Source: Escherichia coli
Lineage (GTDB): Bacteria; Pseudomonadota; Gammaproteobacteria; Enterobacterales; Enterobacteriaceae
DNA: 64,000 nt
Strand: one strand, 5' to 3'
Assembly: GCF_046105845.1 (NCBI RefSeq)
Contig: NZ_CP151004.1
The position numbers were made by a program, and so were the translations under genes. Position 1 is the stretch's first letter. Each line of letters opens with the position of its first letter. Of this stretch, positions 20,079-24,306 are shown one piece after another. Below the pieces are notes generated by a model that worked only from the letters and a program-made list of their open reading frames with translations, did no database searches and was not told the origin of the DNA.

Positions 20079-21019
20079 CCGTGTTCTCCCACGCTTTTTT
20101 GCTGATGCTTGTGGAACCACATTATCGGCACAATTAGCAGCAGCAACATGATGATCGCTACCGCCGAGGCCACCGGCCAGTCGCGGTTATTGAAAAACTC
20201 CTGCCACAGCACGCGCCCGATCATGATGCTGTCCGGGCCACCGAGCAGTTCAGGGATCACAAACTCGCCCACCGCCGGGATAAACACCAGCATCGATCCG
20301 GCAATAATCCCGCCTTTGGTCAGCGGCACGATCACAGTAAAGAACGTTTTCAGCGGTCGTGCACCGAGATCCAGTGCAGCTTCCACCAGCGAATAATCAA
20401 TACGAATCAACGCGGTATAAATCGGCAGCACCATAAACGGCACGTAGGCGTAAACAATGCCAATATAAACTGCCAGATTGGTATGAAGAATGGTCAGCGG
20501 TTGATCGATAACCCCCAACCACAGCAGAAAGTTATTCAGCACGCCGTTATTTTTTAATATTCCCATCCAGGCATAAACGCGGATCAGAAACGAGGTCCAC
20601 GACGGCAGGATCACCAGTAGTAATAAGATATTACGGGTCGAGGGCTTACTGTGCGCCACCGCCCACGCCAGCGGATAGCCGATCAGTAAACAGCAAATAG
20701 TCGAAATCGCCGCCACCTGTAGCGACTGGAGATAAGCATCGAAATAGAGCGGATCGTCGGTCAGTTGCAGGAAATTACCGAGATTAAGAGTGATGGAAAG
20801 TTGCCCGTCAGCCCACTCCATCAGTTCGGTATAAGGTGGAATGGCGCGCGCCATCTCCGCCAGGCTTATTTTAAAAACGATCAGAAATGGCAGCAGAAAC
20901 AGCAGGATTAGCCAGATATAGGGCAGCGCAATCACCAGTTTGCGCCCATGCTTCATTTGCAACTGCGACAGCCACAGCTTAAAGGGTTTTGGCTGGGCAG
21001 CAGGTTCAAGTGTACTCAT
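20075..21019 (-). CDS. potH: Putrescine ABC transporter permease
   Basis: 314-aa permease overlapping potI start. Confidence 0.9.
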   Translation of the reverse strand: MSTLEPAAQPKPFKLWLSQLQMKHGRKLVIALPYIWLILLFLLPFLIVFKISLAEMARAIPPYTELMEWADGQLSITLNLGNFLQLTDDPLYFDAYLQSLQVAAISTICCLLIGYPLAWAVAHSKPSTRNILLLLVILPSWTSFLIRVYAWMGILKNNGVLNNFLLWLGVIDQPLTILHTNLAVYIGIVYAYVPFMVLPIYTALIRIDYSLVEAALDLGARPLKTFFTVIVPLTKGGIIAGSMLVFIPAVGEFVIPELLGGPDSIMIGRVLWQEFFNNRDWPVASAVAIIMLLLLIVPIMWFHKHQQKSVGEHG

Positions 21020-21028
21020 CTTTGCTCC

Positions 21029-22162
21029 TTAAACCGTCAGCACCACACAGCTGTCCACTTCCCAGCACAAACGCACTTCGTCGCCCCAGGTCGGTAACCC
21101 TTTACGATGACGATGGGCGTTTTGTAGCTGGGCGCTAATCATCTGCCCACTTTTCAGACGAACGTGATACACCGAAAGATCGCCGAGATAGGCAATGTGT
21201 ATCACCTCCCCCACCGCAAAATTGTAGCCGTCAGCAGGCGGTTGATCGCAAAGCATGATTTTTTCCGGGCGCAGCGCCACATGTACCGGCACGTTATCGA
21301 CCACCGAAGCATCCGCATCGACTTTCAGTGGATGCACCAGCCCCGGCGAATAAAGCACCAGACCATCTTCCTGACGCTCTTTGAGTACACCTTCAAAGAC
21401 ATTAACCGAGCCAATAAATTCGGCGCTGTAGCGGGTGGTCGGATGCTCATAGATCTCTTCCGGTTCGCCAATCTGGACAAATTTCCCACGATTCATAATG
21501 GCGATACGCCCCGCCATGGTCATCGCCTCTTCCTGATCGTGGGTGACCATCACACAAGTCACACCGACACGCTCCAGAATATCCACCACTTCAAGCTGCA
21601 TCCGGTCACGCAGCTTTTTATCCAGCGCGCCCATCGGCTCATCGAGCAGTAATAGTTTCGGGCGCTTGGCAAGGCTTCGGGCCAGTGCCACACGCTGTCG
21701 CTGACCGCCGGAAAGCTGATGCGGTTTGCGTTTGGCGAACTCCTGCATATGCACCAGGCCGAGCATCTCATTGACCCGGCTGGCAATTTCCGCTTTCGGC
21801 AATTTGTCCTGTTTCAGGCCAAAAGCGATATTCTGTTCCACGGTCATATGCGGAAACAGCGCGTAAGACTGAAACATCATATTGATGGGGCGCAGGTAAG
21901 GCGGAACCTGTGACAAATCGACGCCATCAAGCATTATCTGTCCGGCAGAAGGTTGTTCGAAACCTGCCAGCATACGCAGCAGCGTGGACTTGCCACAGCC
22001 GGATGCGCCCAGCAGCGCGAAGATTTCACCTTTGTAGATGGTCAGGCTGACATCATCCACTGCATGTTGACCATCGTAGGATTTGGTGAGGTTGCGGATT
22101 TCTAATAGCGGCGTCAGCGCCTTACGGGTTTTCGCCTGCGGGCGAGGGATAGCGTCATTCAC
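21029..22162 (-). CDS. potG: Putrescine ABC transporter ATP-binding protein
   Basis: Walker A GASGCGKST, LSGGQRQR signature. Confidence 0.93.
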   Translation of the reverse strand: MNDAIPRPQAKTRKALTPLLEIRNLTKSYDGQHAVDDVSLTIYKGEIFALLGASGCGKSTLLRMLAGFEQPSAGQIMLDGVDLSQVPPYLRPINMMFQSYALFPHMTVEQNIAFGLKQDKLPKAEIASRVNEMLGLVHMQEFAKRKPHQLSGGQRQRVALARSLAKRPKLLLLDEPMGALDKKLRDRMQLEVVDILERVGVTCVMVTHDQEEAMTMAGRIAIMNRGKFVQIGEPEEIYEHPTTRYSAEFIGSVNVFEGVLKERQEDGLVLYSPGLVHPLKVDADASVVDNVPVHVALRPEKIMLCDQPPADGYNFAVGEVIHIAYLGDLSVYHVRLKSGQMISAQLQNAHRHRKGLPTWGDEVRLCWEVDSCVVLTV

Positions 22163-22294
22163 GGCTGCTCTCCGGCATTGAATGTGTGCAAGCGCACCAT
22201 AATGGTGCGAATTGCCGGCGGGTGTGGTGCGCCCGTCCGGCAGATTAATTTGTCGCAGAACGTCTATTGCTGGCTATCTGTAGGCTGGAACCAT

Positions 22295-22342
22295 CCCCTC
22301 GCCCCTTTGGGGAGAGGGTTAGGGTGAGGGGAAGCCCCGTCA
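22295..22342. repeat. GC-rich palindromic extragenic repeat in potF-potG intergenic region
   Basis: cccctcgcccctttggggagaggg near-perfect palindrome followed by ttagggtgaggggaagcccc; resembles a repeated intergenic element family of E. coli. Confidence 0.5.
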
Positions 22343-22366
22343 TACCTGTTCAGCAATCTGAACTGA

Positions 22367-23479
22367 TTATTTTCCGCTCTTCACTTTGGTCCACGCGCGG
22401 GTGCGCACACGGTCGATTTTCGGATCCTGTACTTTCAGAGTGAACAGCTTCGCACGAACATCCGCAGGCGGGTAAATACCCGGGTTATCACGGACTTCCG
22501 CACTCACCAGCGGCGTAGCTTCTTTGTTAGCATTGGCATAGAACACATGGTCGGAAATATGCGCCACCACATCCGGGCGCAGCAGGTAATTCAGGAATTG
22601 ATAGGCTTCGTCTTTATTTTTGGCATCCGCAGGCATGGCGAAGACATCAAAGAACGCCATCGCCCCTTCTTTCGGAATCGAGAACGAGACATTAACGCCA
22701 TTCTTCGCTTCCTTCGCGCGGTTTGACGCCTGCCAGACATCGCCCGCCCAGCCAATAGCGACGCAGATATCGCCGTTTGCCAGGTCGTTAATGTATTGCG
22801 ATGAATGGAAATAACGAATGTTCGGGCGCAGCTTTAACAGCAGATCGGTTGCCGGTCCGGTGTAATCATCTGCTTTAGTGCTGTTGGGATCTTTACCGAG
22901 ATAATTCAGCACGGTAGCAAACACTTCTTCCGGTGCATCAAGGAAAGAGACGCCGCAGCTTTTCAGTTTTTCCAGATTTTCAGGTTTGAGGATCAAGTCC
23001 CAGCTATCGACGGGCACGTTTTCGCCCAGCACCGCTTTAACTTTATCGACGTTATAGCCAATCCCGGTTGTCGCCCACATATAGGGCATAGCAAATTTAT
23101 TATCCGGGTCGTGTTTGGCAACCAACTTCAGCAGTTCCGGGTCGAGATTCTTCCACTCCGGCAATTTGCTTTTATCCAGCGGCTGGAAAACTCCCGCAGT
23201 CAACTGGCGTTCAAGAAAGCTTGCTGACGGCACCACCAGGTCAAAGCCGGTGCTACCCGCCATTAATTTGCCTTCCAGTACTTCGTTAGAGTCGAAAACA
23301 TCGTAGACGACTTTAATACCGGTTTCTTTTTCAAAATTGGCCACCGTGTCCGGGGCGATATAATCAGACCAATTATAAATGTGGAGTGTTTTTTGTTCAG
23401 CCGCGAGCGTACCGACAGAGACGGCCATCAGAGCACCCGCAACCAGACCCGATAGCCATTTTTTATTTAAGGCGGTCAT
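22367..23479 (-). CDS. potF: Putrescine-binding periplasmic protein
   Basis: Start trimmed to MTALNKKWLSGLVAGALMAVS signal peptide (ORF track extends 50 codons upstream). Confidence 0.92.
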   Translation of the reverse strand: MTALNKKWLSGLVAGALMAVSVGTLAAEQKTLHIYNWSDYIAPDTVANFEKETGIKVVYDVFDSNEVLEGKLMAGSTGFDLVVPSASFLERQLTAGVFQPLDKSKLPEWKNLDPELLKLVAKHDPDNKFAMPYMWATTGIGYNVDKVKAVLGENVPVDSWDLILKPENLEKLKSCGVSFLDAPEEVFATVLNYLGKDPNSTKADDYTGPATDLLLKLRPNIRYFHSSQYINDLANGDICVAIGWAGDVWQASNRAKEAKNGVNVSFSIPKEGAMAFFDVFAMPADAKNKDEAYQFLNYLLRPDVVAHISDHVFYANANKEATPLVSAEVRDNPGIYPPADVRAKLFTLKVQDPKIDRVRTRAWTKVKSGK

Positions 23480-23829
23480 ATCTCTTTCCTTCTGAAAGTT
23501 CGTTAACAAACGAACAAAAGTTGTCACACTGAAAGATATGCAATAAACGTGCATATTTTTTATCGGCGCGGTGTAAGAAAAGAGAACTCTCTCCCGGCCA
23601 GCACTGCTCGCTATATAAAAGCATCGCAAGAATAACTTTAGCCAGGGTTTGAGACTATAGCTCGGATTAAAAAACGGTATTTAACAAATTTTTATGCGTA
23701 TTTGCTCTATGTGATAAAGCCAAATCGGCACAAGAGAAGTGAAATAATCTTTAAGAAAAGGTTAAAAACAGCAGATAATTTTGCAGCACGCAGTCACTGC
23801 GGCAGCGACTGCGTACTCGAAAGGAGTTA

Positions 23830-24306
23830 TCAGTGGAGGAAATAGTTTTCGGTAACGTTGTTTTGCCCTTCATCGTCAGTCGGTAACAGCAGTTGATGGG
23901 CATTAGCTTCAAGAATGACCATCGAAATCTGCTCTTCGCTCTGACGCACGAACCATGCAAACTGCTCATAGGTTACGCCCTGCATAACGGATAAAGACTG
24001 GCAAACCACCAGCTTTGGCAGATTATCATCCTGCATATCAAGAAATGCTTTCACGGTCAGCGAACTGGCATTGATGGCTGATAAATCCGCCGCCAGCGGC
24101 AATACGGCTGAAGGTCGGACTTCCGCCATGGCAGAAAACAGGATCGTGTTATCGATCAGATCGATTTTGGCATCAAAGACACCGTCGAAATTCTGCATAT
24201 GGGGCAGATGCAGAGCCTGACAGTTATCACATTCAAAAAAACTCATCCCCAGGTCATCGAGCCATTGACGCAACGTATCCAGACCAGGAACGACCAGCGA
24301 TGTCAT
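23830..24306 (-). CDS. ybjN: Putative sensory transduction regulator YbjN
   Basis: Start trimmed to MTSLVVPGLDTL; downstream of rimK. Confidence 0.8.
   Translation of the reverse strand: MTSLVVPGLDTLRQWLDDLGMSFFECDNCQALHLPHMQNFDGVFDAKIDLIDNTILFSAMAEVRPSAVLPLAADLSAINASSLTVKAFLDMQDDNLPKLVVCQSLSVMQGVTYEQFAWFVRQSEEQISMVILEANAHQLLLPTDDEGQNNVTENYFLH

Follow-up and report, generated by a model that had tools for sequence, protein, structure and literature searches.

The BoxC repeats of Escherichia coli are attributed to Bachellier et al., and the PIT elements to Hoyne and Maher in 2000 and 2002. Both correspond to the motif later called TM_ECO, which was known as BoxC in the 1990s and as the PIT ('potential intrastrand triplex') element in the work of Hoyne and Maher; 23 'TM_ECO' motifs have been listed in K-12 MG1655 (Holder et al. 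2015, Table 1, PMC4666352). In the original K-12 record, 33 BoxC units of 51-59 bp each were annotated (PMC5172473). The isolated G-rich single strand of family members was shown by CD and NMR to form a stable intrastrand purine-motif triplex in vitro; the duplex form of TM_ECO remains a duplex, and the triplex was not detected by DMS footprinting in vivo (PMC4666352). In addition, loci with a TM_ECO motif were found to be unusually variable between strains (PMC4666352).

Here, we analysed a window of 64,000 nucleotides of E. coli DNA (assembly GCF_046105845.1, contig NZ_CP151004.1) in which a GC-rich palindrome is located between potG and potF. Judged by its sequence, this palindrome is a copy of BoxC, and hence of the PIT element and of TM_ECO. 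It had been described in a first-pass annotation as an almost perfect palindrome in the potG-potF spacer, and it is real: the letters then quoted are present at 22295-22342 of the plus strand. We also confirmed that potF is upstream and potG downstream, in the same direction, with the palindrome lying between them (the gene names are taken from the RefSeq annotation of an identical spacer). The orientation of the quoted text needs a correction, however. Indeed, the genes are co-oriented as stated, but both are on the minus strand and the quoted letters are those of the plus strand; because potF and potG are both on the minus strand, the mRNA has the reverse complement of that text.

Positions 22296-22331 of the window are identical (36/36) to TM_ECO numbers 7, 11 and 15 of K-12 MG1655 (Table 1, PMC4666352), and positions 22296-22330 match exactly the pattern CCCTCNCCC-N3-6-GGGNGAGGG-N3-GGGNGAGGG published for the family (PMC4666352). 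When read directly, the K-12 fepB-entC copy is identical to the window over 40/40 nucleotides, and a comparison of 13 K-12 copies, flanks included, was used to define the extent of this shared stretch (see table below). The type 'A mm' is characterized by a TTA second loop and one mismatched triplet (PMC4666352). Accordingly, the pairing of the C-block with G-block 1 contains a single G-A mismatch, to which the 'mm' in the type name refers. Another inverted repeat, TCCCCTCGCCC / GGGTGAGGGGA (22294-22304 / 22322-22332), is 91% complementary and provides an alternative 11-nt hairpin in which the C-block pairs with G-block 2. With G-block 2 antiparallel to G-block 1, 10/10 triads are of the kinds permitted in the purine motif (G·G, A·A, T·A), and the register of the blocks fits a class II purine-motif intrastrand triplex, composed of a hairpin and an antiparallel third strand. 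The window contains one match to the 37-mer (3 mismatches or fewer allowed) and one to the published pattern of three blocks; neither was seen in any of 100 dinucleotide-preserving shuffles.

Table. Coordinates of the genes, spacer parts and repeat components at the potF-potG locus of the window.
Feature	Position	Strand	Remarks
potF, periplasmic putrescine-binding protein, upstream gene	22367..23479	-	RefSeq annotation of matching locus
potG, ABC transporter ATPase, downstream gene	21029..22162	-	RefSeq annotation of matching locus
potG-proximal conserved spacer part	22163..22242	-	hairpin CGCACCATAATGGTGCG (22193-22209), hairpin GCCGGCGGG...CCCGTCCGGC (22214-22241), potG ribosome-binding region
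Allele-specific segment, 122 bp	22243..22364	.	replaces 12 bp TCTACGACTGCG of the common 94-bp spacer
Junction direct repeat, potG-side copy GATTAATTT	22243..22251	+	8/9 match with 22365-22373
Junction direct repeat, potF-side copy GATTATTTT	22365..22373	+	includes potF stop (TTA 22367-22369 on plus strand; TAA on sense strand)
Core flank, potG side	22243..22293	.	no other copy found
Outer inverted-repeat arm ATTGCTG	22266..22272	+	partner CAGCAAT 22351-22357; outer 7-bp stem in long-spacer RNA fold
40-nt stretch TCCCC...GGGGAA	22294..22333	+	letter-for-letter as K-12 copies such as fepB-entC; likeness to other copies stops here
BoxC / PIT / TM_ECO core CCCTCGCCCCTTTGGGGAGAGGGTTAGGGTGAGGGG	22296..22331	+	36 nt, type 'A mm'; identity to catalogued copies and pattern match
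C-block CCCTCGCCCC, pyrimidine-rich arm	22296..22305	+	9/10 Watson-Crick pairs with G-block 1
G-block 1 GGGGAGAGGG, purine arm of hairpin	22309..22318	+	comes after loop TTT
G-block 2 GGGTGAGGGG, candidate third strand	22322..22331	+	after loop TTA (type A-defining loop)
Core flank, potF side	22334..22364	.	hairpin GTTCAGCAATCTGAAC (22348-22363) and motif TCAGCAATCT

Using the 124-nt region as a blastn query, we located related copies in 5,407 of the 5,426 complete genomes of E. coli, at 73,777 places in all and at a median of 15 per genome. Nearly all of these places (73,732/73,777) are chromosomal, and the K-12 copies lie in unrelated intergenic regions; the dispersed, multi-copy, chromosomal and intergenic distribution is that of BoxC/PIT/TM_ECO. 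The earlier suggestion that similar sequences recur in several E. coli intergenic regions is thus correct, and 'box-C', named among the catalogues to be compared, proved to be the right family, both by the pattern and by identity to catalogued copies. The sequence is not single-copy genome-wide, the window itself holding one copy only. A scan of 21000-24000 against Rfam at E<=10 gave no relevant match: the best overlapping one (E = 1.8, 18 bits versus a gathering score of 40) is an unrelated eukaryotic element. In the accessible part of its supplement on 63 loci, PMC4666352 does not name potF or potG. Altogether, the kind of repeat is already known, and the potF-potG locus is a new, rare member.

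Matches were also observed far outside Enterobacteriaceae. Azospirillum replicons have 8-28 places each that are 86-92% identical to the core plus 9 nt (22293-22342), and core-like matches are found in Sinorhizobium, Rhizobium and Aeromonas as well. Campylobacter phages A18a and A11a each have three places with a 97.5% match to the BoxC core of E. coli; such matches are unexpected for the host and may come from contaminating or mis-assembled DNA.

The copy described here shares with BoxC/PIT/TM_ECO the three-block C/G/G organization, the TTT and TTA loops, an intergenic and multi-copy distribution, and a locus that is variable between strains. It differs in that K-12 and 99.4% of complete genomes have no copy at potF-potG, and in that the core is set in 82 nt of otherwise unmatched sequence, the K-12 outer arms being unrecognisable. 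Of the outer arms of the K-12 unit (about gtgcac..ggtc on one side and gaacag..gcac on the other), only TC and GAA adjoin the core in the window. The flanks of K-12 BoxC copies are alike in 37/156 pairs, and those of the window and of K-12 copies in 3/26.

As for REP/BIME elements, such as those of malE-malF and hisJ-hisQ, a GC-rich palindrome is found right after a binding-protein gene, and by analogy an exonuclease-barrier effect would be possible; unlike them, the window element has three blocks and is not a simple stem-loop. Local alignment to a REP pair (RU-3, PMC2759123) was no better than for shuffles (63 and 279 of 500). RU-3 of Delihas (103 bp, PMC2759123) was considered as a name for the ~110-bp insertion and rejected, since the RU-3 sequence is a REP pair and is unrelated. 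ERIC/IRU and the MITE-like RU-1 and RU-2 (PMC2759123) are, as here, small, palindromic, intergenic and strain-polymorphic. Nonetheless, there is no sequence similarity to ERIC/IRU, and of the 122-bp unit only the 40-nt centre is repeated. Alignment to the ERIC core sequence was no better than for shuffles (133 and 331 of 500).

The potF-potG spacer of the window is 204 nt long versus 94 nt in nearly all E. coli. The allele-specific segment was delimited by aligning the window with the short allele of strain DSM 498 and the long allele of strain 1190, and it ends 2 nt from the potF stop codon. The potG-proximal part of the spacer is untouched by the insertion: it is 96-100% identical among the best matches listed and is found in 5,420/5,426 genomes, the ~55 nt nearest potG being conserved in other genera too. 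Across 80 other Enterobacterales, the length of the potF-potG spacer is 86-353 nt and hairpins are always present; only the ~55 nt beside potG are conserved, and the potF-proximal part carries unrelated hairpins and repeat-like sequences. BoxC is absent from all 80 of these spacers. By eye, we take some of the sequences at this place to be REP-type pairs (Enterobacter and Klebsiella; L020, L026, L027, L035) and others to be ERIC-type elements (Buttiauxella, L064; Pectobacterium, L071; Rahnella, L057 and L058; also L075).

Within the 122-bp segment, the repeat family accounts for the central 40 nt only, and 82 nt are non-core. Among the 5,426 E. coli genomes, the potG-side flank (55-nt query 22240-22294, E<=10) and the potF-side flank (43-nt query 22330-22372) were found at this locus only, each in 33 genomes. 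The flanks were not found in plasmids and phages, where only the core matched, an exact 22-mer scan of metagenome contigs retrieved 2 contigs, both of this locus, and there was no donor of the segment among the 80 orthologous spacers from other species. We also considered, from a by-eye impression, that the flanks are inverted or direct copies of the replaced 12 bp; this was rejected as local alignments were no better than for shuffles (221, 509, 830 and 981 of 1000). The ATTGCTG / CAGCAAT pair is not significant alone as a sequence match (101/1000 shuffles).

The long allele is present in 33/5,426 complete E. coli genomes (~0.6%), and the 5,393 others have no element at potF-potG; PCN033 and strain 1190 are examples of carriers. 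Carriers and non-carriers are interleaved among the nearest relatives of the window: the closest relative in the 12-kb comparison, MEI003 (99.3% identity), has the short allele. The strain of the window is absent from the set of complete genomes: the best potF identity to the window among them is 98.8%, and the PotF protein variant of the window is rare (8 contigs); GCA_018015415.1 is 100% identical to the window over 4.1 kb. The segment itself is identical at 122/122 nt in the window, strain 1190 and the metagenome contigs L094 and L095, despite divergent flanks. Indeed, just outside 21960-22423, the divergence in potG and potF between carriers reaches 5-7 sites per 100 nt, and the L094 haplotype combines a K-12-like potF with a divergent potG. 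The 122-bp segment is thus found on at least three flanking haplotypes. An invariant segment on several haplotypes would fit movement by homologous recombination, or selection acting on the segment.

Several other observations were made around the locus. A Logan contig (ERR4034258, L105) with the exact PotF of the window stops 63 nt past potF, inside the inserted segment; repeat copies may break assemblies here, and draft genomes may thus give too low a count of the long allele. In potG, positions 21218-21245 contain 12 substitutions within 28 nt that are unique to the window when compared with K-12-like sequences, strain 1190, L094 and L095, a cluster that looks like a very short recombination or conversion patch. 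On the minus strand at about 20983, PotH reads AAQPKPFKLW in the window versus AAQSKPPGGFKLW in K-12-like sequences and strain 1190; the window protein has 3 residues fewer near the N-terminus, an in-frame difference of 9 nt. Finally, the GTDB representative labelled E. coli SCPM-O-B-8794 (L004) shows a divergence from the window of ~6-7% of sites around potFG, also in the spacer patch that is invariant elsewhere, which is much above other E. coli; this region may originate from a divergent lineage, or the genome may be mislabelled.

Other BoxC loci are also polymorphic, by presence/absence, spacer replacement or block deletions. Between pstA and pstB (K-12 NC_000913.3 3908295-3908730 versus ABU 83972), a 92-bp BoxC insertion shows presence/absence polymorphism and is carried by roughly half of the 5,426 genomes. 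The empty site contains a single copy of the 8-mer AACCGTGT and the filled site three, and with the insertion the pstA stop becomes TGA instead of TAA, the protein end (NKHG, then stop) being unchanged. This copy lies inside the pst ABC operon and is oriented relative to transcription as at potF-potG. At adk-hemH, the K-12 BoxC spacer is 157 nt and the B2-type one 53 nt; at tauD-hemB, they are 106 nt and 39 nt (L108:3625-3727). In both cases, the two alleles are unrelated from the upstream stop codon onward, and the alternative alleles have a simple terminator-like hairpin in place of BoxC. At yjdP-phnP, four length alleles (436, 366, 324 and 317 bp) are seen with deletions between the C and G blocks; a single CCCCTCACCC block is retained in the 'empty' alleles, and in K-12 a partial copy of two blocks is found in addition to the full one, 39 nt away from it. 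The zntA-tusA copy is nearly fixed, with a direct repeat GATAAGGCA around the K-12 copy, and the fimH-gntP copy is also present in the B2 strain ABU 83972. Two candidates were discarded in this survey. The 9-mer CACCCCAAT at yjdP-phnP is not a target duplication, as its right copy is present in all alleles, and ABU 83972 cannot serve as a general empty-site reference, as it still has the fimH-gntP copy and its tauD-hemB spacer is fully replaced. The variability of these loci matches the conclusion of PMC4666352, and a clean target duplication is the exception among the BoxC loci compared.

The distribution of the long allele and the spacer replacements seen at other loci bear on a first alternative, in which the long spacer would have entered as a whole, as an alternative intergenic allele, from a lineage or species beyond the E. 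coli sampled, through recombination in potF and potG and with BoxC as a passenger. We consider such an import unlikely. It would account for flanks that have no E. coli source, for the presence of the segment on several haplotypes and for the near-invariant patch (21960-22423) that surrounds it in all carriers; adk-hemH and tauD-hemB likewise have unrelated alternative spacers with breakpoints at stop codons. However, none of the 80 other Enterobacterales spacers is similar (0/80), and no divergent import tract is visible: beside the segment, about 480 nt can be aligned with K-12 and 3 of them differ, as in ordinary E. coli sequence. Moreover, the core is of the E. coli-typical type A mm. Non-homologous alternative intergenic alleles have reportedly been described as 'IGR switching' by Oren et al. 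in 2014 and Thorpe et al. in 2018. As in IGR switching, two unrelated sequences occupy one spot, the breakpoints are at the edge of constrained sequence, and the spread is by flanking homologous recombination, but here only the potF-proximal 12 bp were swapped and the regulatory half beside potG was kept.

A second alternative is that the segment, either the 122 bp or about 113 bp of it, is a MITE-like non-autonomous mobile element with a BoxC core that inserted beside the potF stop and duplicated ~9 bp of target. We regard this as quite unlikely, despite several suggestive features. The first 9 nt of the segment and the 9 nt just after it (8/9 identical) form a direct repeat exactly at both junctions, for which the chance at fixed positions was estimated at about 1e-4, and the segment as a whole forms one long, imperfect palindrome. 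At pstA-pstB, the K-12 copy is likewise found at the stop codon of the upstream gene, as a clean insertion with a repeated 8-mer. Furthermore, motif TCAGCAATCT is also found in the K-12 adk-hemH and pstA-pstB copies: written as TCAGCAAT(C/A)T(C/G)A, it is common to three copies on the same side of the core. It is located 12-27 nt past the core, on the G-block-2 side, in 3/14 copies (potF-potG at 22347-22360, adk-hemH and pstA-pstB); CAGCAAT itself occurs in the window at ~2x the expected frequency (16 per strand), and the enrichment of the motif is suggestive only. On the other hand, the whole unit is single-copy, its flanks being nowhere else in the genomes, plasmids, phages and metagenome contigs searched. 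In addition, 12 bp of the target are gone and the duplication is therefore not clean, the terminal inverted repeat is just 7 bp and not significant, and of the other BoxC loci two are whole-spacer replacements without duplications and one shows block-level deletions. The combination that marks a MITE, namely terminal inverted repeats, a target-site duplication and several whole-unit copies, was not found. To our knowledge, no transposase is associated with BoxC, nor has a link to RAYT-type transposases been made.

It is also quite doubtful that BoxC cores in general travel as part of palindromic units of ~85-120 bp with little sequence conservation, which would land at stop codons or directly behind them, duplicate 8-9 bp of target and share a terminal TCAGCAAT. 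The candidate target duplications would be GATTA(A/T)TTT at potF and AACCGTGT at K-12 pstA. If the mobile-unit reading were true, the rare invariant potF-potG allele would be a recent event and could expose the mobility mechanism of the family.

It had also been proposed that the palindrome could modulate read-through, and this was not borne out. In this alternative, the palindrome would tune transcriptional read-through from potF to potG, as an attenuator or a partial terminator. A GC-rich hairpin does sit between two co-transcribed genes, and triplex-forming family members are able to stop DNA polymerase in vitro (PMC4666352). However, an intrinsic terminator combines a GC-rich stem-loop with a U-run on the transcribed strand; here, the sense strand continues after the hairpin with AUGGUUCCAGCC, which has no U-run, and a scan of the minus strand found no terminator-like site. 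Published tests are negative as well: neither terminator nor promoter activity was found for PIT elements, RNA polymerase was not affected, and purine-motif triplexes are not formed in RNA (PMC4666352). As the element is also missing from 5,393/5,426 genomes, a role in read-through is highly improbable.

A last alternative involves the stability of the message. By comparison with REP elements, the hairpin of the segment, 3' of potF, could block 3'-to-5' exonucleases after endonucleolytic cleavage, so that the potF message would outlive that of potGHI; carriers would then make relatively more binding protein. REP elements are reported to act after the periplasmic binding-protein gene in malEFG and hisJQMP (Newbury et al. 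in 1987), and the position of the segment, directly after the binding-protein gene of an ABC operon, is that of the REP site in these operons. Folding predictions for the RNA give -76.2 kcal/mol (z = -3.5) for the long spacer and -31.4 (z = -1.0) for the short one; folded alone, the 122-bp segment is predicted at -39.4 kcal/mol and the core at -20.8. The insertion would thus add about -39 kcal/mol of structure right after a binding-protein gene. All potF-potG spacers of the 80 other species have hairpins or repeat-like sequences at the same place, and a second BoxC copy is found in the same orientation within the pstSCAB operon. In a passing mention, PMC3738161 cites BIME and boxC as transcribed and involved in attenuation or mRNA stabilisation. 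Nonetheless, the element is missing at this site from >99% of E. coli and hairpins are already present in the short spacer, low fold z-scores are expected of GC-rich palindromes whatever their function, and the published tests showed no RNA polymerase effect and no terminator activity (PMC4666352). Considering both sides, we find REP-like protection rather improbable as the explanation of the element. We are aware of no mRNA-stability experiment on BoxC-containing transcripts.

Altogether, the palindrome is a BoxC copy within a 122-bp segment carried by a minority lineage. It is very probably a lineage-specific insertion of a structure-prone repeat with no dedicated regulatory job in potFGHI, probably selfish or neutral and possibly with a stabilising effect on potF mRNA. 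In the mechanism that we propose, the hairpin and triplex potential would make the site prone to indels, and the potF-proximal, unconstrained part of the spacer would have been replaced owing to the structure-prone repeat; the long allele would then move between lineages by homologous recombination through the flanking genes. The polymorphism of other BoxC loci speaks for this explanation, and its neutral part is consistent with the lack of any regulatory signature (no Rfam match, no sense-strand terminator-like site, no U-run). Since the transcript carries the C-rich strand, the only likely side effect would be a strong extra RNA stem-loop right after potF. We take potFGHI to be co-directional with replication, as on the K-12 map; the G-rich strand would thus be the template for both transcription and leading-strand synthesis and would spend little time as single-stranded DNA.

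Some data do not fit this explanation easily. First, no source was found for the 82 non-core nt of the segment, and the insertion of a repeat therefore leaves most of the inserted DNA unexplained. The window copy also shares 40 nt only with the 51-59-bp K-12 BoxC units and appears to be devoid of their loosely conserved outer arms. In addition, zero substitutions in 122 bp on divergent backgrounds could reflect selection on the segment instead of recent spread, and the proposal of "no function" rests on absence of evidence.

After about 30 years, we know of no function, mobility mechanism or in vivo structure established for BoxC. For annotation, the palindrome should be labelled as a BoxC/TM_ECO repeat and not as a regulatory site, and it is not to be expected in reference strains. 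While the practical stakes are modest, a rare, cleanly bounded and invariant locus carried on several haplotypes is a convenient natural experiment on BoxC in an operon and on mRNA fate, and the junctions at potF-potG and pstA-pstB offer a concrete hypothesis for how copies of the family arise.
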